Counted from the first letter of the stretch, positions 1,780 through 34,215 are shown. The stretch: DNA of 64,000 nucleotides from a virus (IMGVR_UViG_3300042484_000872:48338-112337), one strand, 5' to 3'. Numbers and translations are program-made. Notes: generated from the letters alone by a model not told the origin.

Positions 1780-2751
1780 TTAATTGTTACGTCTTCTACC
1801 AGCTCTATTAGTGCGGTTAGGAAGTTCATACATATTAAATCTATTAAGATCATTCTTAATCCTTCTTTGCTTCTCCCAAGGAGTTTGTTTCTTTATCTCA
1901 ATACTAGCCATGATGAAAGCCTCTTCATAAGCTTGTTTATGATACATCAACTTCTGTTGTAACTGATTAAATGTTTCATCATTAGTTTGGTTAGTAAGCA
2001 TTTCAAATATCTTAAACTTAAGGAATGCTTCTACATATTCTCTTATACGATAATTATCAGGAATTAATTGATTTCCTATCTCATCATACTCTGTAGCATA
2101 AAATATTAAATGTACTACACCATTTCTGAAATTAGTTACAAACTTATTATCTCGTATATCAAATGAATCATAACTAGCAGAGCCAGGAGTGAATTCATGA
2201 ATAGGTGGAGCTTCTGAATAGAATTCCCAATTGTTTGTATATTCCACTCCACAGTTTTGTCTTGCAGAGATGTTTCCAGGCTTAAGTAAATAGTTATGAG
2301 CAAATCCTCTAGTTACACTATTATTTGTCTTATACACTGTTTGTATTAACTCAGGCATACAAGAACCATCACATCCAACATTTCCACAACAAGGACTAGG
2401 AATAGCACAATCAGTAGTGATAGGAGATACCTGAATAGTAGTTGCAGTGGCTGCTTGTGAATAAAATGAATTAGCTGATTGATATGGATATCCAGATACT
2501 TGTGTACTCATCCAAGCTTCTCTAACAGCATAAAAGTTATCAGGAAGTCTAGCTTGAAAATCTTCAATATAAAGAATCTCATCAGTAATTACATAAGTAG
2601 TTCTTCCTAACTTCTTTAGAGCTTTATCTAAATACGTAGGAAATAAAAGATCATCTACAGCACCTGTATCAAAATAAGACTTTAATTCTTCTTTAACAGT
2701 TGAGTAGACAGGTTCTGGACTTATAAAAGCATATTTATAATAGTAGCTCAT
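1780..2751 (-). CDS. hypothetical protein (structural/morphogenesis module)
   Basis: 323-aa ORF tightly packed in the minus-strand operon; no recognisable motif. Confidence 0.55.
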   Translation of the reverse strand: MSYYYKYAFISPEPVYSTVKEELKSYFDTGAVDDLLFPTYLDKALKKLGRTTYVITDEILYIEDFQARLPDNFYAVREAWMSTQVSGYPYQSANSFYSQAATATTIQVSPITTDCAIPSPCCGNVGCDGSCMPELIQTVYKTNNSVTRGFAHNYLLKPGNISARQNCGVEYTNNWEFYSEAPPIHEFTPGSASYDSFDIRDNKFVTNFRNGVVHLIFYATEYDEIGNQLIPDNYRIREYVEAFLKFKIFEMLTNQTNDETFNQLQQKLMYHKQAYEEAFIMASIEIKKQTPWEKQRRIKNDLNRFNMYELPNRTNRAGRRRNN

Positions 2752-2757: not shown

Positions 2758-3237
2758 TTAATGTTTCCATTCATGGTATAGGTGTTGATACTTATCGTTG
2801 GTCTTTAAGTAATGTGATAAAAGTCTTGAGGTTAACCTAGAAGGTTTGAAATACCAAAGATCAGAATTCTTAAATCTTGCTGATTGCTTAAACCACATCC
2901 AACCAAAAAAATAACCTTCCGTATGATAATTAAAGTTATAAATAACTTTTCCTTTCTCTTTAGTTTTCTGCCAATCAATTGGTAAGTTGACAAACTCTTT
3001 ACCATCTATGTTATTTTTTAATCTTCTTCTTTTCTTTTTATTGATAGAGAATTCTCCAAAACCATATGGAAGCTTTGCTTTATCACCAGTCTCTAAAATA
3101 TATTCTTTAAATGATTCATTGTAGGTGTATAATATATTCCTCCACTCATCAAAAGTTAATTTTATAGTTGAGTTTTTTTTGCAAAACTGATTATAGTTAT
3201 CTTTGCTAGAGCTTCTCCAATCAATCTTTGTCCTCAT
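2758..3237 (-). CDS. hypothetical protein
   Basis: 159-aa ORF, operon context, start/stop abut neighbours. Confidence 0.5.
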   Translation of the reverse strand: MRTKIDWRSSSKDNYNQFCKKNSTIKLTFDEWRNILYTYNESFKEYILETGDKAKLPYGFGEFSINKKKRRRLKNNIDGKEFVNLPIDWQKTKEKGKVIYNFNYHTEGYFFGWMWFKQSARFKNSDLWYFKPSRLTSRLLSHYLKTNDKYQHLYHEWKH

Positions 3238-3965
3238 TAATTAGTTGGTTTTGAGTTAGGTGCTTGACCATCTATTCCTTCTGCACTAATGTCTGATTTC
3301 AAATTAAAATAAGTAGATAATAGTTTTTGTGAGGTAAGTTGTAACACTTGTTGTTCTAAGTATCCAGGAAGAGCAAATTCTTTATCTAAAGGATTCTTAC
3401 ATATCTCATCATTGGTGTATTGTGGAGATCCACATCCACATTCAGGATACATAATGTCATTAGTTACATCTTCTTCGAAGAATGCTACAAATCTAATTGC
3501 TTTAAGTAAAGGATTGTTCACATATAAATATCCATTAGTAATCCAGAAGTATTCTTCTTTTTTAATTACAGGAAGTTTAAGTAAGTTTAAATATCTATTA
3601 ATAGAGATTTCTTTTAACTTCTTCCCTTTACCACTCATGGCATTAATAGAATAAACTCCTTGAATAACATATTGGTAATTACCTTCTGATATACGTGGGA
3701 GTTTAAATTTAGTTCTAGCTATAGAACAAGGATCTACGTAGTTACAACATTCAGAAATAGATACCTCTATCATCTCTAGACAAGGGATAGTGGTAAATAA
3801 TGTATCAGTAGCCCAAAGCTTTCTAAGATTGGTTTCTCTCTTGATTAATAACAAGGAGTTGTTTCTTATCTCAGAAGCAATTGCTCTATCTGTAATAAGA
3901 CTATCTGTAGAAAGTATCTTGTGGACACTTCTAACATCTGATACTAATTTTCTTAATGTTGCCAT
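3237..3965 (-). CDS. hypothetical protein
   Basis: 242-aa ORF, 1-nt overlap with the downstream gene (translational coupling). Confidence 0.5.
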   Translation of the reverse strand: MATLRKLVSDVRSVHKILSTDSLITDRAIASEIRNNSLLLIKRETNLRKLWATDTLFTTIPCLEMIEVSISECCNYVDPCSIARTKFKLPRISEGNYQYVIQGVYSINAMSGKGKKLKEISINRYLNLLKLPVIKKEEYFWITNGYLYVNNPLLKAIRFVAFFEEDVTNDIMYPECGCGSPQYTNDEICKNPLDKEFALPGYLEQQVLQLTSQKLLSTYFNLKSDISAEGIDGQAPNSKPTN

Positions 3966-3967: not shown

Positions 3968-5200
3968 TTATATTCGGGTTTCGAACTCTGCTATTTTACC
4001 TAGCTTACTGTCATAAACTAGAGCAAGAGCTGCACGTACTGAGTGTACGAAGTTATTATCTAAGTGCCATCTATCAGTTCCTGAAAGACTAGGCATTTGT
4101 TGTATTCTTACACCTTTGACTTCTTTAGCCATATAGTGATGTTTATCTCCTGTGTGTATCTCTCTGTATTTAGCATTACCAAAGAAATGACTATATTCAG
4201 GATGTGTAGCAAACAATAAAGGAAGATCATCTAATTTACAATTACCATGGTGCCATCCAATAAATGTATTACCTAACACTTTAGCTTTGATAACTGAATG
4301 TTCTCTGATAAAATCTACATCCATAGCATCTTGAAAATATACATCTAATGCATGTGCTAAGTAGAAAGATTTAGTTCTATCATGATTACCCTGTACAAGT
4401 ACAACAGTTACATCACTAGCATACTGTCTCAGCATATTGATTGTATCTACAAGAACAGAGAATCCTAATTCATACTCTGAATGGTAATCCATTATAGTAT
4501 CTTGTGGTGTACCCTGTGTAGTTTGATGTTGGTAGTTATCAGTATGGAAGAAATCATTTGATATAGGAAGTACAACAGTGTTTATGTTGTAATTAGCTTT
4601 CACTTTACAGATCAAAGATTGAGCCACATTGAAATATCTTAAGGCTCTTGCTTTTGGATCATTGTCACCATCTACACATCTTTTAGCTAAATGGAAATCA
4701 GATAAAGATATTTCTACGTCTACATAATCTTTATCAGTAGTACGATCTTCTTTAATGATTGATACATTAGTTGGTTTGTAGTTTTCTAAAAACTTAGCAA
4801 AGTCTTCAGGAGAATAATCTTGTGGTTGTTTTCTTTTACTAAAGACTGAGGAAGTAAAACTTCCACTTGGTAACATCTTAGACCAATAATTGGTAATGAC
4901 GTATTTATCTAGGTTTATCTTATGTAGCTTAGCTAACTCAAGATCATCTTTAGGTTCAAATGCACTAGTGACAGTACTTTCTATTGTTCCTTTCTCAACA
5001 TTCACTTTTCTAGATTCTTCCATGAATTTAGTAGCAATTCCTACAAGCACATCATCAACATCATCTTTTTCTCTCAGCTCTTTTAGAAGATCATTCACTT
5101 CAAATTCACTTATTCCTAGTTTTTCTGCGTAGAACTTTTTACTTTTCTTTTGCCTTAATAATTCTTCTAATCTATGTAACAAGCTTTGATTTTCAGACAT
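3968..5200 (-). CDS. calcineurin-like metallophosphoesterase
   Basis: VVLVQGNHD (GNHD motif), GWHHGN and HTGDKHH motifs typical of the metallophosphatase fold. Confidence 0.5.
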   Translation of the reverse strand: MSENQSLLHRLEELLRQKKSKKFYAEKLGISEFEVNDLLKELREKDDVDDVLVGIATKFMEESRKVNVEKGTIESTVTSAFEPKDDLELAKLHKINLDKYVITNYWSKMLPSGSFTSSVFSKRKQPQDYSPEDFAKFLENYKPTNVSIIKEDRTTDKDYVDVEISLSDFHLAKRCVDGDNDPKARALRYFNVAQSLICKVKANYNINTVVLPISNDFFHTDNYQHQTTQGTPQDTIMDYHSEYELGFSVLVDTINMLRQYASDVTVVLVQGNHDRTKSFYLAHALDVYFQDAMDVDFIREHSVIKAKVLGNTFIGWHHGNCKLDDLPLLFATHPEYSHFFGNAKYREIHTGDKHHYMAKEVKGVRIQQMPSLSGTDRWHLDNNFVHSVRAALALVYDSKLGKIAEFETRI

Positions 5201-5308: not shown

Positions 5309-5340
5309 ACAAAAACTCCCCAGACAAATGCCTAGGGAGA

Positions 5341-5372
5341 AACCTTAGAAAACCAACAAACTAAGGTTTTTT
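5341..5372. terminator. stem-loop AACCTTAG-N12-CTAAGGTT followed by TTTTTT (A-run on opposite strand)
   Basis: 8-bp perfect stem immediately after the stop of the 5371..5664 minus-strand gene; possibly bidirectional. Confidence 0.35.
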
Positions 5373-5664
5373 AAATTGGTTCAATTGCAGTAGTAGTGGT
5401 AGTTGTAGTTGGTACAACTGTAGTAGTAGTAGTAGTTGTTGTCACTTCATCTAAAACTATATCAATATAATTTGTGCATGTACCAGTAGAAAGAACTCTT
5501 ACTACTGTTGTGTAATCAGGTACAAGAGAGGATGCATATCCTGCTTCTAAAGAAGCTTTAGCTACTCCCACTTCAAATGCTGATGTAAATCCATCAATAT
5601 TTGAATATAAGTTGAAAGGGCCTGAATCAGCCCCAGCTGTTGTTAATGTTAATAATACTGTCAT
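5371..5664 (-). CDS. tail-fibre-cassette paralog: N-domain (GPFNLYSNIDGF) plus poly-Thr linker only
   Basis: N-terminal ~75 aa homologous to the N-terminus of 7085..7999 (GDAGPFNLYSNIDGF...TNYIDV). Ends after the T-rich linker. Confidence 0.5.
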   Translation of the reverse strand: MTVLLTLTTAGADSGPFNLYSNIDGFTSAFEVGVAKASLEAGYASSLVPDYTTVVRVLSTGTCTNYIDIVLDEVTTTTTTTTVVPTTTTTTTAIEPI

Positions 5665-5681
5665 ATATATTTTGGTTTAAA

Positions 5682-7061
5682 TTAATCTTGTATCAATCTT
5701 ACTGATAACCCAACTTTTTTGCTATCAATAGTTAGTAAAGCCAATTCACTATTATAAAAAAGAGAAACTTTATCTGGATTAAGTGGTAGCGTATCAATTG
5801 TTGAAGTCCAGAATCCTGTTTTTTCACGAATAGATTCAAAATCTCCTGTACCACCATTTCTTTGACCTGCACCAAATGCTGTAAAACCACTTGTATCTGA
5901 AGCTCCTGTATTTGGACTATCCCAATGAGCAAGACCAACTTGTTTCATTTTTCCTCCTGCTACAATATCTTCTGCTAATGTATTTATATAACAAGCAAAT
6001 TCAGTTTTTGAAGGAACATGATAACCTACTGGTGCAAATCCACGAGGATCATTAACAGCGTACCAGTTATATAGTTTTCCATAATCTTCATTAAAAGGAT
6101 CATTATCGTACCAACACCATGCACCTGTTGTAAGAGATGACCAAGTAGTTGGATCTGTTACTTGAGGAATTGGATCTCCATTTTGATAGTCTGTTCCACC
6201 ATAATTAATTTTAACAAAACTAGCAATTACATCACATACAGTTGTTGTGGTAGTGGTTGTTGGAGGAACAGTTGTGGTAGTTGTAGTGGTAGGACAAGCT
6301 GCATCAATACAATCAGCTCCTATTGATATAATTACTAATGGATTATCTGCAATAGCACAACATCCACAAACTTTAAGTACTTCAGATGAAGTAATTATAG
6401 TGTCAATAACTTCACCAACACAATTGTTATATGAAATATTATGATCTACTGCACTATTATCTGTATTAGTAAATGTAATACATTGACAAGGAATATATAT
6501 TGTTGTTGTTGTACTTGTTGTTGAACTAGATGTTGTTGTTGTAGTATTACATGGACCTGTTGGTGTAGCATTAACTACTCCAGGAACAATAAGTTCACTA
6601 GCTGTTTCAATACAAACTGCTGTAATTCCTGGCAATAATACTACTGGTGTAGAAAGACCTGTTACACAATCAGTAACTGATATAATAACTGTATCTAAAG
6701 ATAAGTTATCTAAATTATATCCTTGACAAGGATATGCAGTTGATGTACTAGTAGTAGTGGTAGTTGAATCAATACAACCCCACACTGTTTCACAATCTAC
6801 AGAGTTATTAACTATTGTTGTAAATTGATTATATAAGTTAACATTATTAAGTATATTATTAATAATAGTTTCTACCATTCCAGGTCCACATATAAAAGAA
6901 TCAATTTTTATAAATGCTTCAGTGACAGTATCACAATTTGAAATACCTGTACATCCTAATTCAGGACCTACATACACCACTTCATCAGAAGAAGTTTTAC
7001 ATCCACAAGGATTTGGATTTCCACATCCACAAGTGTTAACAATATTATTTGAACAAGACAT
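5682..7061 (-). CDS. tail fibre / receptor-binding-like protein, Cys-rich N-domain, Thr-rich linkers, C-terminal FISUMP (Fib_succ_major-like) domain
   Basis: C-terminus has YGKLYNWYA, GYHVPSKTEF, GGKMKQVGLAHW, SGFTAFGAGQRNG and GLSVRLIQD, matching the Fibrobacter-succinogenes-major-paralogous-domain pattern. Starts MSCSNN. Confidence 0.6.
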   Translation of the reverse strand: MSCSNNIVNTCGCGNPNPCGCKTSSDEVVYVGPELGCTGISNCDTVTEAFIKIDSFICGPGMVETIINNILNNVNLYNQFTTIVNNSVDCETVWGCIDSTTTTTSTSTAYPCQGYNLDNLSLDTVIISVTDCVTGLSTPVVLLPGITAVCIETASELIVPGVVNATPTGPCNTTTTTSSSTTSTTTTIYIPCQCITFTNTDNSAVDHNISYNNCVGEVIDTIITSSEVLKVCGCCAIADNPLVIISIGADCIDAACPTTTTTTTVPPTTTTTTTVCDVIASFVKINYGGTDYQNGDPIPQVTDPTTWSSLTTGAWCWYDNDPFNEDYGKLYNWYAVNDPRGFAPVGYHVPSKTEFACYINTLAEDIVAGGKMKQVGLAHWDSPNTGASDTSGFTAFGAGQRNGGTGDFESIREKTGFWTSTIDTLPLNPDKVSLFYNSELALLTIDSKKVGLSVRLIQD

Positions 7062-7084
7062 ATTTTTTATTTTTAGTTTTTAAT

Positions 7085-7999
7085 TTAATCTGCAGCTACA
7101 CGTACTGTGTAACCTGTACTTTTTATTGTATCTGATGCATATAAAGTAGCATTATAATAATAAAGACCTCTATAATATGCATTAGTTGAATTTATTTCAC
7201 TAGCTGTCCAAAAAGTTGCAAAATCTCCAAACCCATAAAATGAACCAGTGACACCATTACGATTTCCTACAGGAAGTGCTGTAAATCCTGTACTATTTGT
7301 TGCACCTGTATTTGGACTAGCCCAGTTTGTAAGACCCACTTGTTTCATCTTACCACCAAGTGTGTTTGGAAAATTTATTGGGTTTACAGAATAATAGTAA
7401 CACCACCATTCATTATTAGTTGGTACATGATATCCTAATGGAGCTAAACCTCTTGGGTCATTAACAGCATACCAATTGTATATTTTACCATACAAAGCAT
7501 CGTTTGCTGGGTCATTATTATAGTGACACCATGCTCCAGTGGTTAAAGCTGCCCATCCAGCATTTGGTCCAGTACCTACACTTACATATTCAGGAATAGG
7601 ATCTCCATTTCTATATGTATCTACATTAAGATTTGTAGGTGCAAATACTGGAACTTTACAAGTGGTTGTAGTTGTAGTAGTTGGTCCAGGTACTGCAGTG
7701 GTTGTAGTGGTAGTGGTTGAACTTGTACTTGTGCTTGTAGTGGTTGTAGAAGATGTACTTGTTGTTGTAGTGGTAATTAAGTTAATTATTACATCAATAT
7801 AATTCGTACAAGGAGTAATAGATTTAATTCTAATCACTGTTGTTCCATTAGGAACTAATGAAGAAGTGTATCCAGCTTCTAAAGCTGCGGCAGATATATT
7901 TGTTTCAAATGGAGTGATGAATCCATCTATGTTTGAATAAAGATTGAATGGTCCTGCATCACCTCCTATTGGTATAACTATTGTTATTATTGTTGTCAT
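7085..7999 (-). CDS. tail fibre-like protein: N-domain + poly-Thr/Ser linker + FISUMP domain
   Basis: C-terminus YGKIYNWYAVNDPRG...GYHVPTNNEW...GGKMKQVGLTNW...TGFTALPVGNRNG...GYTVRVAAD. N-domain shared with 5371..5664. Confidence 0.6.
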   Translation of the reverse strand: MTTIITIVIPIGGDAGPFNLYSNIDGFITPFETNISAAALEAGYTSSLVPNGTTVIRIKSITPCTNYIDVIINLITTTTTSTSSTTTTSTSTSSTTTTTTTAVPGPTTTTTTTCKVPVFAPTNLNVDTYRNGDPIPEYVSVGTGPNAGWAALTTGAWCHYNNDPANDALYGKIYNWYAVNDPRGLAPLGYHVPTNNEWWCYYYSVNPINFPNTLGGKMKQVGLTNWASPNTGATNSTGFTALPVGNRNGVTGSFYGFGDFATFWTASEINSTNAYYRGLYYYNATLYASDTIKSTGYTVRVAAD

Positions 8000-8016
8000 A
8001 TTATTTTATTTATTAA

Positions 8017-9021
8017 CTAAACAGCATCTGGTAAAGGTGGTGACGGATTTGGAATATTACATTTTAATGTATCACCACACAACACTGTAGTAGAACCATA
8101 AATAAATGCATGCGGTGTAGTAAGATGAATAAGTTGTATTACACCACAATGTATTGTTGTATATCCTTCAGCTTCTCTAATATATTGTACTGTATTACCA
8201 ACTACAAATGTTTGTCCAGCTACTGGTGCATCATCATAAAATCCTTCACCACATTCTTGTATTAAATAACAATTTTGAGGAGGAGGTGGTAAAGTTGTAG
8301 TAGAAGTGGTAGTAGTAGATGTACTAGTACTAGTGCTACTAGATGTAGTTGTAGTGGTAGTAATCTCATCAGCATCTCCTGTGAATGAACAATCTAACAC
8401 TGTAGTAGTGGTGGTGGTTGTAGCACAAGCTGCTCCAGTTATAACTATTGCATTAACTAATGTAAGTGATGTATTTAAAATACAACCTGTATACACCGTA
8501 GTACCAGAACTTATTATAATTCCTCCAACTGGAACACCTTCACAATTTAATGCAATCCAACTAGCATCATTTAATATTGATTCTATTGTATAATTAACAC
8601 AAGCTAAAGCAACTGTTGTTGTAGTGGTAGTGGTTGAACTAGATGTAGAAGTAGTAGTTGATGTGCTTGTACTGGTAGAACTAGATGTTGTTGTTGTAGT
8701 TGATGGAGGTGGTGGTCCACATTGAATAATTGTTTCACAATTAATTGCACCATTTATTATTGCTATGAATTCAGAATACTCTTGAGGATTATCTTGAATC
8801 ATATCTAATATATGTTGTGTTAATTCTATTCCACATATGAAATAATCTAACTCTTGAAAAGCTACACTAATGTTATCTTGGTTATTAATTCCTGAACAAG
8901 ATAAATTTTCACCATCATAAACCAAATCATCTGTAGTTAAACCATCATGGTTACATACAGAAGAATTTGGATTAGTTGGAGTTTCATTGCAATTACAATC
9001 TGATGGTAAAAACTTCCACAT
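8017..9021 (-). CDS. tail fibre-like paralog (Cys-rich N-domain, two Thr/Ser linkers, distinct C-terminal domain)
   Basis: N-terminal domain resembles those of 5682..7061 and 9025..10104 (paired Cys motifs, ...FICG...). Long S/T tracts. Confidence 0.5.
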   Translation of the reverse strand: MWKFLPSDCNCNETPTNPNSSVCNHDGLTTDDLVYDGENLSCSGINNQDNISVAFQELDYFICGIELTQHILDMIQDNPQEYSEFIAIINGAINCETIIQCGPPPPSTTTTTSSSTSTSTSTTTSTSSSTTTTTTTVALACVNYTIESILNDASWIALNCEGVPVGGIIISSGTTVYTGCILNTSLTLVNAIVITGAACATTTTTTTVLDCSFTGDADEITTTTTTSSSTSTSTSTTTTSTTTLPPPPQNCYLIQECGEGFYDDAPVAGQTFVVGNTVQYIREAEGYTTIHCGVIQLIHLTTPHAFIYGSTTVLCGDTLKCNIPNPSPPLPDAV

Positions 9022-9024
9022 AAT

Positions 9025-10104
9025 TTAAGGAATATATATTATATAATAACAACCTCTACTTGGTTGAATATTTGAATGAGGTAATCCACCACCAATGTTA
9101 CCAGCAGTTGCAGTTACACCCACTGTAATATTTGTTACATTAGTTGTAGTATCTCCTACAACACCTTGTCCATTATCTACTTTAGGATGAAGATTTCCTG
9201 AAGCACCACCTTGAACATTATGAAAGTGTCCAGGATCAGTGACAGTAACATTAGTTGTTATAGGATGTGCATGTGAAGGCATTTGTGTAACACCTAATAC
9301 AACTTCATTAGTTCCAGTAATTGTAGTTACTGTATATGTTGGATTACCTCCACCAGGCTGAACTACAGGATCAAATGCAGCAGCACTCATTGTTGTAGCT
9401 CCAACTAAAGTTCTTCCTCTTAAATCAGGAACACCAGGGTTTTGACCATTACATAAAAATATCCTTGCATAATCTCCTAAACCAGCTCCAGATGCATCAA
9501 AATTACCTAAACTTCCAAAATATGGAACTGCTGTGTAAGGAACCATTCTAGAACTATATAATGTAAATGTAGGATCACTGTTTATATAAGCTTCTATATA
9601 ATTATCAATATTAGCAATTGTTACATACTGTGTATGCACTTCTAATATTAAAGCTGCTAACGTTGTATTAATAGCACATATTTTATCAATTGTAGCTTGT
9701 AGGACATTATGTGTACCACCAGAAGCTGTAACTCCTGTAACACATCCTAATGTATAATCAGCGTTTAAATCTTCTATATCAGCAACAATTAAATCAATTT
9801 GATCTTGGAGGTCACATGTAGCTTTAATAATAGCTGTAAGCACTTCATTTAATGTAAATCCTGTACACTGTGTGCAAGTTGGTAAATATTTACTTACTAC
9901 ATTACAAATAATGTTATTATCTATAATAGGTTTAATACCTGTTCCATTAAGTACAGGAACAAGAAAGTTAACTATTGCATTTTCAACAGACAATAAAGAA
10001 TCTCCGTGAAGAATACCTAACTCAGGAACATTTATTCCTGTATATTTAATGCACTGATCTGAAATAGTCTCAGCACATCCATTAAAACAATTTGAACAAC
10101 TCAT
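9025..10104 (-). CDS. tail fibre protein with phage tail-collar domain
   Basis: FLCNGQNPGVPDLRGRTLVG...GVTQMPSHAHP...GGGLPHSNIQPS matches tail-collar domain signatures. N-terminus MSCSNC is shared with the other paralogs. Confidence 0.65.
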   Translation of the reverse strand: MSCSNCFNGCAETISDQCIKYTGINVPELGILHGDSLLSVENAIVNFLVPVLNGTGIKPIIDNNIICNVVSKYLPTCTQCTGFTLNEVLTAIIKATCDLQDQIDLIVADIEDLNADYTLGCVTGVTASGGTHNVLQATIDKICAINTTLAALILEVHTQYVTIANIDNYIEAYINSDPTFTLYSSRMVPYTAVPYFGSLGNFDASGAGLGDYARIFLCNGQNPGVPDLRGRTLVGATTMSAAAFDPVVQPGGGNPTYTVTTITGTNEVVLGVTQMPSHAHPITTNVTVTDPGHFHNVQGGASGNLHPKVDNGQGVVGDTTTNVTNITVGVTATAGNIGGGLPHSNIQPSRGCYYIIYIP

Positions 10105-10370
10105 TATCTATATTTTAAAAGTTTGATTTTACTAGCTATCATATTCACAGAATATAAACCAGCGTAATTTGGATTACAAATTTTATATGAAAGAATTCTT
10201 CTGTAATTCAATAAAGAATTCATTGTATATGCATCAAAAGATTGATTTAACATAAATGAGATGTTATTATATAATGCATTACTCATGTCTGCTATTTTAC
10301 AATCTATCTCTAATATTAAAGAAGGAATGTTAGCACATTCTTTACAATTGGTTAATCTAGGTGATAGCAT
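10104..10370 (-). CDS. hypothetical protein (possibly fibre-associated)
   Basis: 88-aa ORF directly upstream of, and coupled to, the collar-domain fibre gene. Confidence 0.45.
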   Translation of the reverse strand: MLSPRLTNCKECANIPSLILEIDCKIADMSNALYNNISFMLNQSFDAYTMNSLLNYRRILSYKICNPNYAGLYSVNMIASKIKLLKYR

Positions 10371-11141: not shown

Positions 11142-12335
11142 TTAAGGAATGTTAGTAGAAGTTGTAGTAGTAGTAGATGCAGGAGCACTAGATGTAGTAG
11201 TTGTAGTTGTAATACAAGCATTGTTATCTAATACAGTTCCTAAAGCAGCTTCTAATACAGTTTCAATTGCAGCAGCAATACCACTTGTTAAAGAGTTTGG
11301 AGCAGCAATGATTACAGTTGAATCTTCTTGAATGTAATCACCCCATTGGTATGCAGATTTATCATACTCATTAAATTTAATGTAGTATGTATCATATGTA
11401 GTACCACCAGATACCCAAGTCTCAAAGTTCTCGTTGTATCCATTCATTCTGTAAAGGTGTTTCAAATAACCAGCTTGGTAGCTATAGAAATTTTTCTCTA
11501 ATTGAGCAATTTCTGCAGATGTACCAGTAGCATAAGAAGCACGTTGAGTGATGATTGGTTGAGCAACAAAGTTACAAGCATCTGCAACAATAAAGTCAGC
11601 AGTAGTAGCTGGACCAGCATATACAAATGTTCTGAAAGACATTCTGTCATATTCAAAAGGGAACGCAGCAACATCACATGGTTGTCCATATACTGTTAAT
11701 GGTTTTCCTGTAATACGCAAGATAGTTCCACCTACATTTTCAAATGTATAGAATGTAGAGAATGAAATGTTATCAGGGTTGTTTCCTGGAGCTTTCAAAT
11801 TCAATTGATAAATCAACTCATCAATGATAGTAGATGTACTTACATCAGCACATGGATTAGCATCACAGTCACAACAAGGAGCTTGAATAGTTACTGATCT
11901 AGTGAAACCATTGAAATACAATGTATCAATATAAGAAGAGTGAGCACGCAAAGTTAATGTAATAACTTCTCCACATTGTACAGTGAAATTAGTTACATCA
12001 GTAATTTGGTTAGCAGCTGTTGGGCATCCTGTTACTTTATACCATTCTGTTACATTAGAACCAGAAGGTCTAATTGTTTGTACATTTCCTGTAAGAACTA
12101 CTCCACCACCTGCAATTCTATCAGATCTTTTAGATCCTTGCAAATAAGTATTTGTTCTACCTTGGGCAATGTAAAAATAAGGGAAGTTATTAATAGTTGA
12201 GCTAGTTACCGTAGCATACAAGTTATTAAAAATCCCAACTTGTCCTGCAGTCAAGTTTTGTGTTGAGCCAGAGCTAGGGAGTGCAGTTTGCCCTACTGGA
12301 ACCACAAATAATGTGGTTAATGAAAAATCAGCCAT
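11142..12335 (-). CDS. structural protein with Thr-rich C-terminus (possibly major tail or capsid-associated)
   Basis: 397-aa ORF ending ...TTTTTTSSAPASTTTTTSTNIP, resembling the linkers of the fibre paralogs. Confidence 0.5.
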   Translation of the reverse strand: MADFSLTTLFVVPVGQTALPSSGSTQNLTAGQVGIFNNLYATVTSSTINNFPYFYIAQGRTNTYLQGSKRSDRIAGGGVVLTGNVQTIRPSGSNVTEWYKVTGCPTAANQITDVTNFTVQCGEVITLTLRAHSSYIDTLYFNGFTRSVTIQAPCCDCDANPCADVSTSTIIDELIYQLNLKAPGNNPDNISFSTFYTFENVGGTILRITGKPLTVYGQPCDVAAFPFEYDRMSFRTFVYAGPATTADFIVADACNFVAQPIITQRASYATGTSAEIAQLEKNFYSYQAGYLKHLYRMNGYNENFETWVSGGTTYDTYYIKFNEYDKSAYQWGDYIQEDSTVIIAAPNSLTSGIAAAIETVLEAALGTVLDNNACITTTTTTSSAPASTTTTTSTNIP

Positions 12336-14091: not shown

Positions 14092-14125
14092 AATGTAGTT
14101 AAATTTAATAATTGGTTTTAATTTG

Positions 14126-14200
14126 TTGCGTGGGTTGGACTCGAACCAACGACCTCTAGGTTATGAGCCTAGCGAGCTAACCAACTGCTACTACCACACG
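14126..14200 (-). tRNA. tRNA-Met (CAT), initiator-like
   Basis: Reverse complement CGTGTGGTAGTAGCAGTTGGTTAGCTCGCTAGGCTCATAACCTAGAGGTCGTTGGTTCGAGTCCAACCCACGCAA. Anticodon loop CTCATAA, T-arm GTTGG-TTCGAGT-CCAAC, C1/A72 mismatch and A11:U24 as in bacterial tRNA-fMet. Strongly resembles E. coli tRNA-fMet by eye. Acceptor stem by hand alignment; D-stem pairing imperfect; no encoded CCA. Needs tRNAscan-SE/ARAGORN. Confidence 0.6.
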
Positions 14201-14412: not shown

Positions 14413-15975
14413 TTAGAATTGTGGCATTTCCTCAATCAACACAGTTCTAGACAAATCTTCAATAAATACATCACATCTGTCTTTCATCCAGATTTCGTAT
14501 CCTGGGAATTTATTAGCAGAGCTCATACCTTGAGATTTAGCAAAACCTAAGTGATGACGAGTTCCATCAATATAACCCCAAGTCATAGAAGGAGCACCTT
14601 TCATACGTACTTCTCTAATGTTGTTTACCATTGAACCATCAGACATTGGAGAAACATCAAACACCATAAATACAGGCGTAGATTTTTTGTTTTGTCCAAA
14701 CTCTAAGTTAGATTGTGGTAAATCTAATTCTTTTAAGTGAATCAATTCAACTCTACCAGTCTCACGAGTTACCATTGCATCAAATGCAAAGTTGTAAGTG
14801 ATATGTTGTCCTTCACCTTGCATGTATCTGTTTCCAGAATCAGCCATGAAAGTAAGACCTGAATTTAATGCATCTGTTTTCAAAGCTTGTTGGAATACAT
14901 CGAATCCAGCTTCATTAGTATACATTTTTACACTTCTATCTTTCACATCCACTCTTCTGTAGAATAAATCTCCAAATACAGAACGGATTAAGTTAGCAGA
15001 GAATTCACCTCTGTTATATTGTACCAAGTTTCCATTGTTACGCATTCTGTGATATACACCAGCAGATGTTCTTTTCAATTCTTGTTTAGAACCTCCAGAT
15101 TTAACTGTACCTGGTTTAGCCCAGATCATACGTTTAACTTTCAATTCAATCATTGACTTACGCATCCAGAATTCAATAAACGGTTCCCATTTAACATCAT
15201 TACGTGTAAGTGGTAATTGGTTACGTCTTTGTGGAGCATATACCAAAATGTCTAATGGTTTACCAGAAGCATCTCTCATCATTTTGTCATCAGCCCATTC
15301 TGTGATTTTGTGCTCATATCCATATGCAGAACCTAATGATTCAAACATTGTGATTTGCTCACCTAATCTTGGAAGACCTAATAAATCTTGATCAAACTCA
15401 CCAATAGCTGCATCAACTAATTCTAGTTCTACACCATATTGTAAGAATACAGGATTAACAAAATCAACTTGTGGATTATCAGTTACTAATGTAAATGAAT
15501 ACAAGTATCCCATATTCCAAGGTAATGGATCTTTGATCACGTAGAAACGTGGACCATATTGACGTGTACCTACAGAGATGATAGCATTTTTAGAAAACTC
15601 ATTAGTATCTAATACTAATTGGAATTCTTGACCATCGATACCTGTTTTACCAAGATCAATTAAATCTTGTGTAGAAGAAGGAATGTCAATAATTTTTGGG
15701 AATTTGTAAGGAACTGCTACTTGCCATTTCCATGCATCACTATTATTATCAATATAATAAGGTGTGCTTTTGTTGATCATGTCTAAGAAGTCATTACTGT
15801 AAAGTGAGCTCTGTGTATAAAGACTGATGATTTTTTTATCATAGTCTGCAGGCTCAGTAGAGTGAAAACTCTCTAAGTGGTTAGAGTCTGTTAGTTTTCC
15901 TACTGCACGTTTGTCCATAGACGCTACACGAGCATAAGTAAAACCAGTTAACCCAGGAATTGTTTGAATTGCCAT
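14413..15975 (-). CDS. putative major capsid protein
   Basis: 520-aa ORF directly downstream of the scaffold-like gene in a portal-scaffold-capsid order. No motif-level confirmation. Confidence 0.4.
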   Translation of the reverse strand: MAIQTIPGLTGFTYARVASMDKRAVGKLTDSNHLESFHSTEPADYDKKIISLYTQSSLYSNDFLDMINKSTPYYIDNNSDAWKWQVAVPYKFPKIIDIPSSTQDLIDLGKTGIDGQEFQLVLDTNEFSKNAIISVGTRQYGPRFYVIKDPLPWNMGYLYSFTLVTDNPQVDFVNPVFLQYGVELELVDAAIGEFDQDLLGLPRLGEQITMFESLGSAYGYEHKITEWADDKMMRDASGKPLDILVYAPQRRNQLPLTRNDVKWEPFIEFWMRKSMIELKVKRMIWAKPGTVKSGGSKQELKRTSAGVYHRMRNNGNLVQYNRGEFSANLIRSVFGDLFYRRVDVKDRSVKMYTNEAGFDVFQQALKTDALNSGLTFMADSGNRYMQGEGQHITYNFAFDAMVTRETGRVELIHLKELDLPQSNLEFGQNKKSTPVFMVFDVSPMSDGSMVNNIREVRMKGAPSMTWGYIDGTRHHLGFAKSQGMSSANKFPGYEIWMKDRCDVFIEDLSRTVLIEEMPQF

Positions 15976-17398: not shown

Positions 17399-17424
17399 CC
17401 TCCTCCGAAGAGGAGAAGTTTTTT
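17399..17424. terminator. stem-loop CCTCCTC-cgaa-GAGGAG followed by TTTTTT; T-rich flank on the minus strand too
   Basis: Lies between the portal stop (17423) and the scaffold start (17280). Possible attenuator or bidirectional terminator. Confidence 0.3.
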
Positions 17425-20008
17425 AACCTTTTTTGTTATTTCTGCCTTTAGCGTTCTCTTTTGCAACAGCAAGATCGTTTGCCATATTCTCTCTAGCCAC
17501 TTGTAGTTTCTCTTTTTCTACAGACATTTTATCGCTAGCTTGTTTATTCTTAGATTGAATATCAGCCATCTTTAATCCATAATCTTTTGTAGCTGTATCT
17601 TGATCGTGAGCTAACCTACTCATTTCCATTACATCAGGAATAGCATTTGCATTTACATCTTCTGATTCAACATTACCAAATCCTGTAGCTTGTATAATAG
17701 CAATCTTCTCTTTAGATAGTCTATCAAGTTCTTTTTGGTAATCATCATGAGCCAATTGCTCTTGGTGTTGTTGGATGAGGAACTGTTGTTGAGCTTGTGC
17801 TTGTTGTTGTTGAGCTTCTTGCTGTTGTTGAGCAAGTTGTTGTTGTTGCTCTTGTTGAGCAATTTGTCTATCTCTAAGATCTTTAAATACCTTCTTAAGT
17901 TCTCTTTGAGACTTAGTAGAATACAATTCTATTACATCATAAAGCGTGCCACCATTTTGAATAATAGCTTGAGAAAGTTGTCTAAGTTCATTAAACATTT
18001 GTGTATCTTCTGGTCTGTTTGTTAAGAACACTTTTAAGTCACGAAATTTAAGATCTGACCCATTTACTTGTACAAATGCAGATTGTCCCTCAGAGGTCAC
18101 ATATGAAAGCGTAGACTGAGGTTTTGATGATTCTACATAAAGAGCAGCATCTATAATACTTTGATACAGCTGTCCAAGCACATACTCGTGAGCTACAAAA
18201 AGAGGCTCTGTTTGAGAGTAACTCTGCTGCATCGCAGTATTAGTTCCTGTTGCACTTTCAGAAGCAGATACACTTCCCATACGTTGTTTAGACATACCTA
18301 CAAGTTCCCAGCATTCAAGTTTCACTTGCTGAGCTAATGTATATCTAGATTGTATCTCCTGTGTACGTGTAAGATCAAGAGCTGTAAATTGATTAAATGA
18401 ACTAGGACTCTTTAGATTCTCAGGACTATCATCAATAAATACCACTCCTCTGTTACGTGCTTCCATTTCCCATATATCAAGAGCATCTTGTGCATCTCCA
18501 TCTTTAGGAATAGGAATGTGTCTTAATGACATAAGCTGAACCTTACCCACTTCTTTCTCAAGTAGTTTGTATAATTGGTTCATACATACATTATAAATTA
18601 CTTGGAAAGGTTTCATAAGATCCACTAAGCTTTTTGCTTCTGTATTCTTCACCTCAAATGTTGTACCTATAATAGGACAATAGTTTAATAACTTAAATGG
18701 TTTGATATGATAGATATCTGGACCAATCTTTGTTCCTTGATACCATTCATTAATCCATCCCCATTCTAATGATTGTTGTGTAGGTATAGTACCTGATTTA
18801 TATGATTCATCAACAAGTGTAGATTGCTCATTACCCATTTCATCTATATAAATTAACTTACCAATTTTCTTTTTAGATATCCAATAGCTTCTTACAACAA
18901 CATACTTATATCCAAATGAGCTTACATTATTAGTAAGACCTAAGAAATCTTTTAGTCCATCATTGTTTTCTTTCATCTCTGATTCAATGATCATACGTGT
19001 CTGTAGAACAAGTGGATCAAATGTATCATACATTACAGAGTCTTGTCCTGGAACAGCATCTGGATTACCAAGGTTTGATTCTCTAACATTAATCAATCCG
19101 TAATCTTGTAAAGATGATCTAAGGTGATCTATTTCTTCTTTTGTAAGATCTGGTATAGATTCAATAATCTCAGATAATTCCATAACTTGCACAGTACCAG
19201 CAGCATATGCTCCTTGAGCTCTACCTGTAGGATCTGATATGTATTTTCTATCTGGTGTACTTAAGAACCATGTGTTCTTTGGATTAGCTACTTCAACATT
19301 AAATCCAAGTTTAGAATTGTCTTCATATATATGATAGAATTCTCTAGCAGATATTAACATATCTCTAAATGCATCCTCACTCTTTTCTTTAATATTAAAC
19401 TCAGCTTTCTGACATGTAAGAACATGGTTGGCCCATTTCTCAGCTATAGATGTATAGCTATCTAACTCATCCTTAACCTGTTCCATTGTCATTTGTTGCA
19501 ATTGCTCTGGATCAATTTCTTCTCCTTGCATTGCAGCTTTTTCTGTCAACTGTTGTTTAACTTGATTGATTACATATTCTTGTAACGTATCTGTTTTGAA
19601 CTGAAGCTCTTCTGCTTTACTATCATCATCAAAAGCTTTCACTCTAAATGTATCAGGTCTCTTTGATATTTCACCAACGAGCTCATTAACAGGAGTGGTG
19701 ATGATTGAATACATCTTTACATAAGCAGGAAGAGCTAAGTCTCCTGTAAGTACATCTGTAAAGCTTCTTACCTCTGGTTCTTGATAGAAATCTTCCATAC
19801 GAAGAATTCCTTTCATAAGATCGTAATTAGGAACAAAGGTGTCTCTGTTCTTTATATACTCAGCATATGCTTTATTGGAGAAATAATCCATCGTATTTTT
19901 AATCCAACTCTCATCTTGTTTTTCCTTATCTGTTTTGAATTGATCAGGAAAGATGTTTAAGTATGCATACCTAATAGTAGCATCTTTTGTATATCTAATT
20001 ATTGCCAT
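17423..20008 (-). CDS. putative portal protein (Gln-rich coiled-coil C-terminus)
   Basis: 861-aa ORF immediately downstream of TerL. C-terminal QQEQQQQLAQQQQEAQQQQAQAQQQ tract. Assigned by gene order. Confidence 0.5.
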   Translation of the reverse strand: MAIIRYTKDATIRYAYLNIFPDQFKTDKEKQDESWIKNTMDYFSNKAYAEYIKNRDTFVPNYDLMKGILRMEDFYQEPEVRSFTDVLTGDLALPAYVKMYSIITTPVNELVGEISKRPDTFRVKAFDDDSKAEELQFKTDTLQEYVINQVKQQLTEKAAMQGEEIDPEQLQQMTMEQVKDELDSYTSIAEKWANHVLTCQKAEFNIKEKSEDAFRDMLISAREFYHIYEDNSKLGFNVEVANPKNTWFLSTPDRKYISDPTGRAQGAYAAGTVQVMELSEIIESIPDLTKEEIDHLRSSLQDYGLINVRESNLGNPDAVPGQDSVMYDTFDPLVLQTRMIIESEMKENNDGLKDFLGLTNNVSSFGYKYVVVRSYWISKKKIGKLIYIDEMGNEQSTLVDESYKSGTIPTQQSLEWGWINEWYQGTKIGPDIYHIKPFKLLNYCPIIGTTFEVKNTEAKSLVDLMKPFQVIYNVCMNQLYKLLEKEVGKVQLMSLRHIPIPKDGDAQDALDIWEMEARNRGVVFIDDSPENLKSPSSFNQFTALDLTRTQEIQSRYTLAQQVKLECWELVGMSKQRMGSVSASESATGTNTAMQQSYSQTEPLFVAHEYVLGQLYQSIIDAALYVESSKPQSTLSYVTSEGQSAFVQVNGSDLKFRDLKVFLTNRPEDTQMFNELRQLSQAIIQNGGTLYDVIELYSTKSQRELKKVFKDLRDRQIAQQEQQQQLAQQQQEAQQQQAQAQQQFLIQQHQEQLAHDDYQKELDRLSKEKIAIIQATGFGNVESEDVNANAIPDVMEMSRLAHDQDTATKDYGLKMADIQSKNKQASDKMSVEKEKLQVARENMANDLAVAKENAKGRNNKKG

Positions 20009-20009: not shown

Positions 20010-22040
20010 TTATCTAAACAATTTATTTTTTGGTGTGTTAAACATTGATCTGCTTTCTGTAAACAGTCTATTCAGTTTGTTCTTTTTGAACATTGATTGT
20101 ATTCTTACATCTTGCTCTCCTCCTATTTTTCCCATGATGGGATCTAGTTTCATTGCTAAAGCTATTGCTAACTCAGCTGCAATGATTCTATCAAAGTTAC
20201 CTGATTCATTATATTGGATCATCTCTTCAAGAAGAACAGGATCAAATATCTTGGCCATACCTTTTGTCTCAGACTTAATGTTTCCATCTTCATCCTTCTC
20301 TGTATGTATCACTTCTTCTGTATACTTCTTAAGACATCCGTGTAAGAAGTCTCGTATTTTCTCAGAAGATCTATGTATTCCGTAATCCCTTCTTACTGTG
20401 GTGTTTGGAACAATCTCTTTCAACCAATCTGGTTGTCTCTCTAAATAATGTGCATCTCCTTTAGCTATCATGTAGTCAATAAAAGATATTTCATCATTCT
20501 CACATAGAGCTCTAGCATTATAATACTTGATTAAGTATCTAGCTTGTTCTTCCCATGTTTCTTTCTTCTCTGGTCTAGCACAATAACTAGCTACAAACAT
20601 ATCTTGATACTTCTCTCCTGATATAGCATGCATACGTTTGTATATGTATACAGATCCTAATGAACTTGAATATGCAGATTTACCTTGTCTATAAGGGTCA
20701 ATCCCTGCAACATATAATCCATATGGAGGAGATTCAACAGGGAACTCATATATCACTACAGGAGCTTCTTTGTTATCACTATTCTTAAGTGGGAAGTTTG
20801 ATATAGGCACCTTATCACTAAACTCATGTTTTACACCATCACCATCATCATATAAAACAACAGGTGTTCCTGTTCTTTCTTGTGCTAATAGTCTGGCTTT
20901 CTGACGTTTAGATGCTTCAATATCAAATATGTTCGTATCCTCATTTAAGAATATATCATCCACTTCTTGTGGGTAATACATCTTCTCTTTTAAATAAGCT
21001 AGTCTATCACCAGCTTTCTTTAATCTGTCAAGGTTATCATTTGTAATCTTATCTGCTTTCTCTTCATTAGATACTAACATCTTTACATTATGTAATTCTG
21101 ATTCTGCTGGTTGTTCAAGATAGGCTCCAAGTGTAGAGTCTTCCTTAGCTTCCATTCTATACTTATGTGAGATGAATAGTCCATGGATTCTTTGATCATC
21201 CTTTGCACTATTATATTCCAGGAAGTTGAAATTGGCTACATCAAACATTAAGCTTTTTGCATCCATGAAATTCTGCATATCTCCACCTGTACCTGTAAGT
21301 ATAGGCGAACATCCCCAACCAAATGGTGTGGTGAAACCTGGTGTAGCTGCTTGTAATCCTCTAAGGAAATTACCCTTACCTATCTCATCAATAATAAGCC
21401 TTCTAGGTTTTGTACCTGCAATAGCCTCTTCATTATTACCACCATCTAAGTTACGAATAAGGATCTGAGAAAAGGGGATTCTCTCTCCTGCTTTTGTCTT
21501 GATCCCTAATGTAACTTGGTTTTTCCAGTTGTCTTCCACCCTCTGCCATCTCCAGGCTTCAGGTAGGAAGTTTAATCCTTTGTCAATCTTATCTGTGATA
21601 AGCTTTATATCGGGAGCATTCAATCCTGCTATAATGTTTTGGGAATTCTCATCGAATGTTGCCCCATGACCTATGTAGGAACTCTCAATTACTGACTTAG
21701 CTAAACGACGAATGCCTAATATTACTAGGCCTTTCTTTTCGTTGTGTGCTCTATCTATTTCATTTGTTATAATCCACTCATTATCACGTAGATATGGATT
21801 AGCATATTTTTGATTAATCCTTCCACGATCATCTATAATATCCACCTCTGTATTCCAGAAGTTTAAATGCCAATATAGAAAAGGGTTAATATATACTCCT
21901 CCCATTGTACAGCCATCAATACATAGTTGTTTATGGAAAGCATAAAATGCTTTATACTCTTCTGAATCCTTTGATGGAACTCTCTTTTGATTGATAAACC
22001 AATCTCCGTATTCAATACTCTGTAAGCCATCGATCATCAT
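20010..22040 (-). CDS. terL: terminase large subunit
   Basis: Deviant Walker A LGIRRLAKS (gp17-like), Walker B LIIDEIG, C-terminal nuclease-like VAGIDPYRQG (catalytic Asp). 676 aa. Confidence 0.7.
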   Translation of the reverse strand: MMIDGLQSIEYGDWFINQKRVPSKDSEEYKAFYAFHKQLCIDGCTMGGVYINPFLYWHLNFWNTEVDIIDDRGRINQKYANPYLRDNEWIITNEIDRAHNEKKGLVILGIRRLAKSVIESSYIGHGATFDENSQNIIAGLNAPDIKLITDKIDKGLNFLPEAWRWQRVEDNWKNQVTLGIKTKAGERIPFSQILIRNLDGGNNEEAIAGTKPRRLIIDEIGKGNFLRGLQAATPGFTTPFGWGCSPILTGTGGDMQNFMDAKSLMFDVANFNFLEYNSAKDDQRIHGLFISHKYRMEAKEDSTLGAYLEQPAESELHNVKMLVSNEEKADKITNDNLDRLKKAGDRLAYLKEKMYYPQEVDDIFLNEDTNIFDIEASKRQKARLLAQERTGTPVVLYDDGDGVKHEFSDKVPISNFPLKNSDNKEAPVVIYEFPVESPPYGLYVAGIDPYRQGKSAYSSSLGSVYIYKRMHAISGEKYQDMFVASYCARPEKKETWEEQARYLIKYYNARALCENDEISFIDYMIAKGDAHYLERQPDWLKEIVPNTTVRRDYGIHRSSEKIRDFLHGCLKKYTEEVIHTEKDEDGNIKSETKGMAKIFDPVLLEEMIQYNESGNFDRIIAAELAIALAMKLDPIMGKIGGEQDVRIQSMFKKNKLNRLFTESRSMFNTPKNKLFR

Positions 22041-23523: not shown

Positions 23524-24102
23524 CTATTTATATCTAATATTAAACTTTTTACTTTTATTAACACCTCTACAATTTGATGATATATTACTTTGAGATACAT
23601 TTAAAAACTCTGCAGCTTTTAATGATGATTCAAACTCTTGTATTATATTATTACTATCATCTAACAAAAGTACAATTTTTTGTTTAGTTAAACCTAATTT
23701 TTTATTATGTTCACTACTTCTAATTACAGTTCTTCCTTTTAATGAGTTAGCTATTTTTAATCTAGTTTCTTTTTTAACTTCCCTTCCTAAACAATTTCCT
23801 GCAACTGGAGTAGCATTATACCCACTGCTATATGAGTTATATTTATCTATATAATACTGTTCTTGTAAAAGAATGTTTTCATTACTGCATGTTTCTACTA
23901 TTTCAAAAATAAAACTATCTTCTCCGTATTTATTCCAAGCTCTTTGTAACTTAATTGAATGATGTTTATTCTTTTTAAGATTAGTTATATGACATCTTTT
24001 TCGTTTAGTTAATCCATGAATAGATGATCCTATATATACTTTATCTGTAGATATATTTTTTATCATGTAAATAACTCCTTCATATATCTGACTTAGGCTC
24101 AT
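23524..24102 (-). CDS. GIY-YIG homing endonuclease
   Basis: GVIYMIKN...KVYIGSS (GIY...YIG), conserved R/H/N downstream, C-terminal basic DNA-binding region. Confidence 0.65.
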   Translation of the reverse strand: MSLSQIYEGVIYMIKNISTDKVYIGSSIHGLTKRKRCHITNLKKNKHHSIKLQRAWNKYGEDSFIFEIVETCSNENILLQEQYYIDKYNSYSSGYNATPVAGNCLGREVKKETRLKIANSLKGRTVIRSSEHNKKLGLTKQKIVLLLDDSNNIIQEFESSLKAAEFLNVSQSNISSNCRGVNKSKKFNIRYK

Positions 24103-28736: not shown

Positions 28737-28764
28737 AGAGAGCTGTAATGGCTCTCTTTTATAT
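28737..28764 (+). terminator. intrinsic terminator AGAGAGC-tgtaatg-GCTCTCT + TTTTAT
   Basis: 7-bp stem read directly; the track's ATG at 28748 lies inside the loop. Confidence 0.5.
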
Positions 28765-28771
28765 CAAAGCT

Positions 28772-31479: not shown

Positions 31480-31713
31480 TTTGATTAATTATTTGGTTTG
31501 TTACTCCCTGTAGATTATATTTGCAGGGATATTGTATAATCACTGGGGACTATAAACGCCACATAGCAGTTTAAATAGTCAATGTATGTGCTGCGTATCA
31601 TTGAACTTACCTATATTATGCATATTATGAGTTTAGAACTCACTAGAGTGATACAAAAAGAATAGGGAAGCTGAAAACTATATAGAGTAGGTACAAAATT
31701 AAACCAATGAACA

Positions 31714-34169: not shown

Positions 34170-34194
34170 GAGGGTTCGAATCCCTCCGAGTCCA
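34170..34194 (+). other. orphan tRNA 3' fragment (T-arm GAGGG-TTCGAAT-CCCTC + acceptor 3' strand CGAGTCC-A)
   Basis: Canonical T-arm read directly. No complementary 5' acceptor strand (GGACTCG) anywhere upstream. Confidence 0.35.
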
Positions 34195-34215
34195 CTGATT
34201 ACCAGTTAGTTAAAT

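Follow-up and report, generated by a model that had tools for sequence, protein, structure and literature searches.

A 64-kb stretch of DNA from a viral contig (IMGVR_UViG_3300042484_000872:48338-112337; hereafter the window, meaning the whole stretch that was analysed) carries five consecutive minus-strand genes, named A to E, at positions 5371 to 10104. This locus is probably a hypervariable cassette of fibre (receptor-binding) genes that belongs to an uncultured crAss-like phage and is diversified by recombination. We base this reading on modular homology among the five proteins, the folds of their domains, the hypervariability of the locus among related phages, and the breakpoints that separate it from close relatives. 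A preliminary description of the window had proposed a tail-fibre cassette of five paralogs built from interchangeable modules, comprising five consecutive minus-strand open reading frames (ORFs) with poly-Thr/Ser linkers. All five ORFs are present where they had been placed, the linkers are confirmed, and a cassette of modular fibre-like paralogs within a phage structural operon is supported.

The genes are transcribed from E to A, and their products follow one plan, in which a head is joined through a Thr/Ser-rich flexible linker to zero to two small Cys-bounded beta beads and then to a tip. The heads are the conserved parts and are of three kinds: N1, which combines a Cys-rich loop with helices; N2, a beta-sandwich of 72 aa; and F, of 88 aa. 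Gene E (9025..10104, 359 aa) encodes the fibre that stays constant at this locus, in which an N1-like head (aa 5-49, about 10092-9958) is followed by a helical or coiled-coil shaft (aa ~50-200) and a collar/gp10_C-like tip (aa ~201-359, 9504-9028). Gene D (8017..9021, 334 aa; beginning MWKFLPSDCNCN) encodes an N1 head (aa 1-106, 9021-8704) joined by a Thr/Ser linker to an all-beta bead (aa 136-198, 8616-8428), after which a second linker leads to a C-terminal domain of unknown fold (aa 244-334, 8292-8020). Gene C (7085..7999, 304 aa) encodes an N2 head (aa 1-75, 7999-7775), a Thr/Ser linker (aa 76-111, 7774-7667), and a Fibrobacter succinogenes major paralogous (FISUMP) domain as its tip (aa 112-304, 7666-7088). 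Gene B (5682..7061, 459 aa) encodes an N1 head (aa 1-99, 7061-6765) and two beads (6734-6546 and 6500-6291), each preceded and followed by a linker, and ends in a second FISUMP tip (aa 275-459, 6239-5685). Gene A (5371..5664, 97 aa) is a head-only stub, in which an N2 head (aa 1-73, 5664-5446) is followed by a Thr-rich tail (5445-5374) without a tip domain. Thr/Ser linkers lie between all modules, and the DNA that encodes them makes up a family of direct repeats that are imperfect. The same repeat family is found at the 3' end of the upstream structural gene H (11142-12335, minus strand), whose product has a dangling C-terminal Thr/Ser tail (11145..11219, ITTTTTTSSAPASTTTTTSTNIP) with no module beyond it.

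An all-vs-all BLASTP comparison of the five proteins placed two pairs of N-terminal domains above chance. Proteins A and C share the N2 head (61% over 62 aa, 86 bits), as had been described, and the heads of B and D are homologous to each other (38% over 73 aa, 52 bits). The C-terminal domains of B and C also align (48% over 177 aa, 159 bits). The heads of B and E were not significantly similar by BLASTP (E-value 0.7). However, hhalign with profiles built from relatives aligned aa 5-49 of E with aa 14-58 of B (78% probability, P 1.8e-5, 45 columns). The Cys-rich MSCSN(C/N) domain that had been assigned to B, D, and E therefore holds as a homology, at the profile level only for E, and the literal MSCSN motif occurs in B and E but is missing from D.

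The assignment of FISUMP domains to the C-termini of B and C was confirmed by two profiles, both above their curated cut-offs. With PF09603 (cut-off 33.9 bits), aa 286-457 of B scored 88.3 bits and aa 123-280 of C scored 92.5 bits; with TIGR02145 (cut-off 41.65 bits), B and C scored 59.9 and 68.4 bits, respectively. A, D, and E matched neither profile. An AlphaFold2 model of C had a mean pLDDT (predicted local distance difference test score) of 85. It showed the N2 head (aa 1-72) as a small beta-sandwich, the linker (aa 76-111) as disordered, and the FISUMP domain with confidence. The modelled domain is structurally similar to solved members of the C-type-lectin/FGE-sulfatase superfamily, and the FISUMP domain of C is accordingly predicted to have a C-type-lectin/FGE fold. 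Similarity scores were 7.2 with SUMF2, 6.9 with TvpA (a variable protein of a diversity-generating retroelement, DGR), 6.4 with the C-terminal domain of Legionella Lcl (DUF1566; 23% identity), 6.0 with 4EPS, 5.8 with the fibre tip of Bdellovibrio Bd2740, 5.7 with TaqVP, and 4.9 with Mtd. In the model of D, the all-beta bead reached a pLDDT of ~95 and the N1 helices 75-82. A, B, C, and D had no match in PHROG, D had none in Pfam, and sequence searches of the Protein Data Bank (PDB) with C and E gave nothing useful.

The tail-collar domain that had been proposed for one C-terminus, that of E, was not recovered, since a PF07484 search of this protein gave no match even at an E-value of 10 or below. 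The phage tail collar domain (PF07484) is typified by the motifs CxG...PDLRGR, HxH, and GG..PH.N.QP. Protein E has PDLRGR, two HxH motifs, and GGGLPHSNIQP, all invariant across 27 homologues, with a shortened segment from C-N-G to PDLRGR; the stretch that separates the HxH motifs from the C-terminal motif contains a hypervariable insert. Its match to PF21939 (Gp10_C, the C-terminal domain of T4 gp10) was below threshold (21.8 bits, E-value 3.9e-4; gathering score 27), and over aa 216-356 it matched the tail fibre families PHROG 8763, 8469, and 20878 (8e-15, 2.8e-11, and 2.2e-4). Its profile found weak matches only in the PDB (gp10, 2fkk, E-value 0.11; long tail fibre, 8kec, E-value 0.1), and a tblastn search with E against a phage collection found nothing.

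Two close relatives record the exchange of modules directly. The relative L002 is 95-97% identical to the window across 13200-1501, with the exception of two blocks. It lacks window positions 7750-7081, which encode the linker and FISUMP tip of C (breakpoints 7751/7080), and an 86-aa N2 stub (C') remains. In the second block, positions 6748-5698, encoding the beads and FISUMP tip of B, are replaced by 840 bp that encode other beads and a D-like tip (breakpoints 6749/5697). In both blocks the 5' breakpoint is in a linker-coding tract and the 3' breakpoint is at the stop codon. Of the recombinational host-range toolkit that had been suggested, the module exchange is therefore borne out by L002, which lacks both FISUMP tips and has breakpoints at the linkers. 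The relative L081 is 97% identical to the window overall. Its indels in B and A fall within linkers, the linker of A being 11 aa shorter, and D differs by a 3-aa deletion and many substitutions that lie in the C-terminal tip and not in a linker. The FISUMP tips of B are ~100% identical in the window and L081 up to a sharp break, after which the last ~210 nt are ~63% identical and differ by an 18-nt indel and substitutions of all types. Further combinations were found among other relatives. In P0002, the tip of C and the end of its linker are found at 77% identity on an N1 head, and L093 has both beads of B with a different tip. Across the relatives, the same type of FISUMP tip is carried by N1 (P0002), N2, and F-homologous heads.

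A search of IMG/VR with the neighbouring protein G recovered 459 relatives; we mapped the modules of the window onto 80 of these and extracted their ORFs. The 80 loci share a conserved frame, I-H-G-F-E followed by the variable interval and then exonuclease-Ring2-x-Ring1, and the flanks I-H-G-F and Ring2/Ring1 are 74-100% identical. No related locus lacks gene E (358-386 aa). Between it and the exonuclease gene, an interval that differs widely among more than 100 related IMG/VR contigs contains one to four genes encoding 63 to 1542 aa. Each of these variable genes opens with an N1 or N2 head, followed by Thr/Ser linkers and Cys-bounded beads of 60-70 aa, and the tips at their ends are many and unrelated. 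When the segments between linkers were clustered, at least 25 module families emerged among 67 distinct proteins. Gene F (10104..10370, minus strand), directly upstream of E, encodes an 88-aa head-only protein that is 49-76% conserved in relatives. We regard it as a third head type because relatives fuse the same domain to a FISUMP tip through poly-Thr in a single ORF (P0096; L093 7536-8540). Proteins consisting of a head alone recur as well, with N2-only proteins of 72-99 aa accounting for about 17 of the 84 distinct N2 proteins (some cut by contig ends) and N1-only proteins measuring 63-108 aa. Both the FISUMP tip and the N2 head have relatives in Virus NIOZ-UU157, among them two proteins of 77 aa that consist of N2 alone.

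One lineage has N1 at the head of a protein of ~1500 aa with Collagen (6e-55) and Peptidase_S74 intramolecular-chaperone (4e-19) domains. By its domain content this collagen/S74 protein is a typical fibre, and it provides the best evidence that N1 is a head for fibre attachment or trimerisation. A Pfam scan of ten variable proteins from relatives found domains in this fibre alone, and N1 also occurs joined to DUF1566. In L058, L059, L064, L067, and L068 (e.g., L059 12061-16689), one N1-headed protein of 1266-1542 aa, with collagen-like G-T/S-S repeats and a C-terminal Peptidase_S74 chaperone, takes up the entire variable interval.

FISUMP relatives are encoded by at least 336 IMG/VR contigs. 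Among the best 79 of these, most come from the clade studied here and have one to three FISUMP tips per cassette. The FISUMP-tip strategy extends beyond the immediate clade, since more distant crAss-like contigs (L101, IMGVR_UViG_3300042445_001054; L120, L123, L141, and L162) carry three to six tandem FISUMP domains, directly upstream of a Ring2-like gene that is 28-30% identical to that at 3237-3965. The exonuclease-like gene between the cassette and Ring2 (3968-5200, minus strand; phrog_704, 1e-50) is ~32% identical in most relatives, where the flanks are ~80% identical, but 58-98% identical in carriers of FISUMP tips. It may exist as two allelic classes that co-vary with the cassette type.

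The wider gene content of the window (AT-rich, about 32% GC) places the cassette in a crAss-like phage. PHROG matches identified the terminase (20010-22040; 2e-85), portal (17423-20008; 2e-96), and major head protein (14413-15975; 2e-32), and the portal is 24-30% identical to those of crAss-like phages. A 97%-identical ENA contig has precomputed Pfam matches to Crass_capsid, CrAss_Ring_2 (window 3237-3965), and CrAss_Ring_1 (window 1780-2751). Judged by its capsid, portal, terminase, and multiple ring proteins, and formal taxonomy aside, the window is assigned to an uncultured crAss-like phage. Upstream of the cassette are the virion proteins I, H, G, and F, and downstream are the metallophosphoesterase/exonuclease-like gene and then the ring-protein genes. 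The cassette is placed inside a virion-structure operon because the PHROG and Pfam matches locate capsid, portal, terminase, and ring genes around it. A terminator-like hairpin (5316..5339, minus strand), found by consensus scan only, has a 10-bp stem with 6 GC pairs and a T-tract, 32 nt past the stop codon of A, and probably marks the end of the cassette transcription unit. At the DNA level, the cassette had no match among GenBank phages.

From these observations we propose how the cassette may work. The heads most likely attach the proteins to the virion, and the comparison with crAss001 would place the docking site at the tail-hub collar or on other fibres. The tips would bind ligands through a FISUMP C-type-lectin fold (B and C), a gp10/collar-like domain (E), or a fold yet to be assigned (D), with A and F being head-only proteins. 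Several tips on long flexible tethers could allow one virion to probe several surface ligands of a host from the Bacteroidota or the wider Fibrobacteres-Chlorobi-Bacteroidetes (FCB) group. New combinations would arise by recombination without a retroelement, each exchange of a whole tip running from the (ACN/AGY)n tract that encodes the linker to the stop codon. The lengths of the linkers would drift, and the distal ~70 residues of a FISUMP tip could be swapped alone.

Several points weigh against this proposal. We infer that the proteins are present in the virion, that their heads dock, that they sit on the tail rather than the head, and that their tips bind ligands; likewise, the role of linker DNA as a recombination substrate is deduced from the positions of the breakpoints. 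PDB profile searches with G and F gave no signal to the crAss001 tail-hub proteins THA and THB. The C-terminal tip of D had a pLDDT of ~30 and was left unmodelled. The N2-headed proteins could be capsid fibres. Finally, the window covers 64 kb of a genome of ~90-110 kb, and a distant reverse transcriptase could lie outside it.

Among other explanations, one that concerns only part of the locus has a real, if minor, chance of being right. Gene A and the head-only stubs could be functionless, decaying remnants of tip deletions, so that the five-paralog toolkit would be partly debris. Consistent with this, A and the C' protein of L002 end within or just past the linker, and C' is visibly a deletion derivative of C. 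However, head-only ORFs are intact and recur in divergent lineages, including the N2-only, N1-only, and NIOZ-UU157 proteins described above, and A, which has a C-terminal EPI motif of its own, shows 97% conservation in L002. A different and tentative idea, which we offer as speculation, is that a dedicated acceptor system is made up of the linker tracts together with the head-only genes that have been retained (A, F, and the N1/N2 stubs), in which linker-flanked tips are captured onto spare docking heads by homologous or microhomology recombination. Such a system would include the capture of FISUMP domains from surface lipoproteins of FCB hosts.

It is unlikely that the cassette encodes, in part or in whole, fibres or decoration proteins of the capsid (head), which would adhere to particles or mucus-like matrices in place of receptor recognition by the tail; A and C, with their N2 heads, would be the foremost candidates. 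The two kinds of head fibre in crAss001 dock through short N-terminal segments (gp21 residues 1-38 and gp29 residues 1-58; PMC10172136), and the N2 class could be capsid fibres because tail and head fibres of crAss001 both dock through short N-termini. That a single cassette has three head types hints at several docking sites, and N2 is a small beta-sandwich of Ig/Fn3 size, which is common among capsid decoration proteins. However, the cassette directly follows the constant fibre E with its tail-fibre PHROG matches, N1 heads the collagen-like fibre with the S74 chaperone that is typical of tail fibres, and FISUMP tips are interchangeable among N2, N1, and F heads in relatives.

We consider it very unlikely that the FISUMP genes are host-derived morons, encoding lipoprotein-like surface adhesins of the infected cell (e.g., for superinfection exclusion) rather than parts of the virion. 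Bacterial FISUMP proteins are typically lipoproteins of FCB bacteria with an N-terminal lipoprotein signal (PMC5758913), and the phage tips are 45-52% identical to their closest bacterial homologues, from Chitinophagaceae, Flavobacterium, Ignavibacteria/Kapaibacteria, Saprospiraceae, and Chlorobi metagenome-assembled genomes. However, reading the sequences by eye, with no predictor run, we saw no signal peptide or lipobox in B, which starts MSCSNNIVNTCGCGN, or in C, which starts MTTIITIVIPIGGDAGPF, a beta-strand in the model. Instead, both have the same heads as the fibre proteins. They are embedded in the late structural operon and share its strand, the only terminator-like site being the one that follows A. 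The architecture is also kept in hundreds of viral contigs. As read from their N-termini, the phage FISUMP proteins have fibre heads in place of the lipoprotein signal, an accessory rather than a defining feature of the family.

DGRs are known to target FISUMP/DUF1566 domains (Fib_succ_major/DUF1566), a class with a C-type-lectin fold (PMC5758913, PMC4159848, PMC11661182), and they do so in phages of Bacteroides too (PMC8143477); we therefore looked for a DGR. It is highly improbable that the FISUMP tips are variable regions of such an element, as they are in the Bacuni phages or in Zeta or Epsilon crAss-like phages. The divergence of the tips is indeed greatest in the C-terminal ~60-70 residues, the site of C-type-lectin variable regions. 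However, a template repeat would require a second copy of the 3' end of a FISUMP gene, and the 64-kb window has none; no reverse transcriptase was found among the ten ORFs of at least 343 aa scanned on the plus strand (28748-62761); and no adenine-biased imperfect repeats were found in 84 related loci. The indel and the mixed substitutions that distinguish the tip of L081 also speak against a retroelement. Although several alternative tips are adjacent, an inversion switch that acts at specific sites within one genome (of the kind known from Mu Gin, P1 Cin, or shufflons) is effectively refuted by the orientation of all genes on one strand and by an inverted-repeat search that found only short repeats at the chance level of 70-86% complementarity, and profile scans found no adjacent recombinase gene.

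A fibre cassette diversified by recombination can be compared with several known systems. The Zeta crAss-like phages, of the same phage order, have tail-fibre proteins with a trimeric N-terminal stem, Ig-like spacers, and a C-terminal C-type-lectin domain (PMC12386605). These and the Alpha and Epsilon fibres resemble the window proteins in their docking N-terminus, spacer of small beta domains, lectin-fold tip, and hypervariable locus. However, their tips are diversified by DGRs, whereas no DGR was found for the window cassette, which varies by module exchange. The cassette also differs in its FISUMP/PF09603 subfamily of lectins, its Thr/Ser linkers and Cys-bounded beads, and its tandem fibres with three heads. 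Mtd of Bordetella phage BPP-1, TvpA, TaqVP, and Legionella LdtA (class 'd' DUF1566/Fib_succ_major targets; PMC5758913) are 14-16% identical to the window domains. In contrast to Mtd and the other DGR proteins, the cassette shows indels and whole-domain replacement, and neither a reverse transcriptase, among the ten plus-strand ORFs scanned, nor a template repeat was found. The Bacuni phages of Bacteroides uniformis (PMC8143477) likewise infect Bacteroidota and have DUF1566/Fib_succ_major domains, encoded by genes with a link to host tropism, but they are siphoviruses with a DGR, whereas the window phage is crAss-like and encodes head-linker-tip proteins with no DGR found. The C-terminal domain of Bdellovibrio Bd2740 (PDB 8oks), 8% identical, belongs to the mosaic adhesive fibre tips of a bacterial predator rather than a phage.

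Mosaic tail-fibre loci such as T-even gp37/gp38, the P2, Mu, and P1 fibres, and the head swaps of lactococcal receptor-binding proteins combine a conserved N-terminal part for virion attachment with horizontally exchanged C-terminal receptor-binding parts, and their breakpoints lie at conserved joints (conserved glycine islands or collar motifs). Swapping of tips, as seen among the close relatives of the window, is a well-known means by which phages switch hosts. The window cassette differs from these in that its joints are low-complexity Thr/Ser linker-coding tracts and its head-only genes are retained. The proposal that FISUMP domains as receptor-binding tips would be a new role was overstated, given the DGR-target class, the lectin tips of Zeta crAss-like phages, the number of IMG/VR contigs, and existing database labels: UniProt already names uncultured Caudovirales proteins by their FISUMP domain, and GenBank annotates the domain in a Rhodobacteraceae phage (beside virion proteins) and in a Microcystis phage. 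What appears to be undescribed is the linker and bead architecture, the three interchangeable head types, the recurrent intact head-only genes, and an exchange, independent of a DGR, that moves either entire tips or just the distal sub-domain, where DGRs introduce mutations in other lectin-fold proteins. As a pointer to the host clade, the FISUMP domain holds at the level of the FCB group/Bacteroidota and no finer, all of the closest bacterial domains falling in the same narrow range of identity; it adds little because a crAss-like identity already implies this group.

Other features of the window are recorded here. Within the structural operon, a tRNA-Met gene (14125-14200, minus strand) separates the gene for the major head protein from the virion gene that comes next. 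With 88% identity to its counterpart in Cellulophaga phages phi4:1 and phi17:2, this tRNA-Met gave the sole match to GenBank phages at the DNA level. A transfer-messenger RNA (tmRNA) is encoded at 33865-34197 (plus strand), with the tag peptide ANAQIEANMNKVFSLLNEDVIVGLAA according to ARAGORN and a score of 49.9 bits with Rfam RF00023 (gathering score 47). Directly after it, a 111-nt tRNA-like match (34216-34326, plus strand; RF00005, 36.9 bits) was not called by ARAGORN and may be an intron-containing or otherwise unusual tRNA. A DUF805b RNA motif (RF02914) at 31661-31693 (plus strand) scored 36.7 bits, slightly over its gathering score of 35.6. An ORF resembling GIY-YIG/HNH-type homing endonucleases (23524-24102, minus strand; phrog_314, 3.6e-29) is located near the strand switch between structural and replication genes. 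The phage also has its own RecA (PF00154, 1.9e-85), a DnaB-like helicase, and a MoxR-type AAA ATPase among the plus-strand genes 61706-62761, 43424-44488, and 28748-30088. This RecA could bear on recombination-driven turnover of the cassette.

The crAss-like phages are very abundant, and their host recognition is poorly known, particularly in environments other than the gut. Natural design rules for fibre engineering are offered by the conserved heads and low-complexity joints described here, with a practical value that will be modest until a cultured member exists. If the speculative acceptor system is real, it would be a DGR-free route to lectin-fold receptor binders and a natural plug-and-play platform of receptor-binding proteins in a large environmental crAss-like clade. 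The locus and its relatives, identified through G and through the FISUMP domain, provide a sequence-level map of the sites of host-range variation in this clade, and they suggest that lectin-fold tips can be diversified by the exchange of cassettes and sub-domains without a retroelement.

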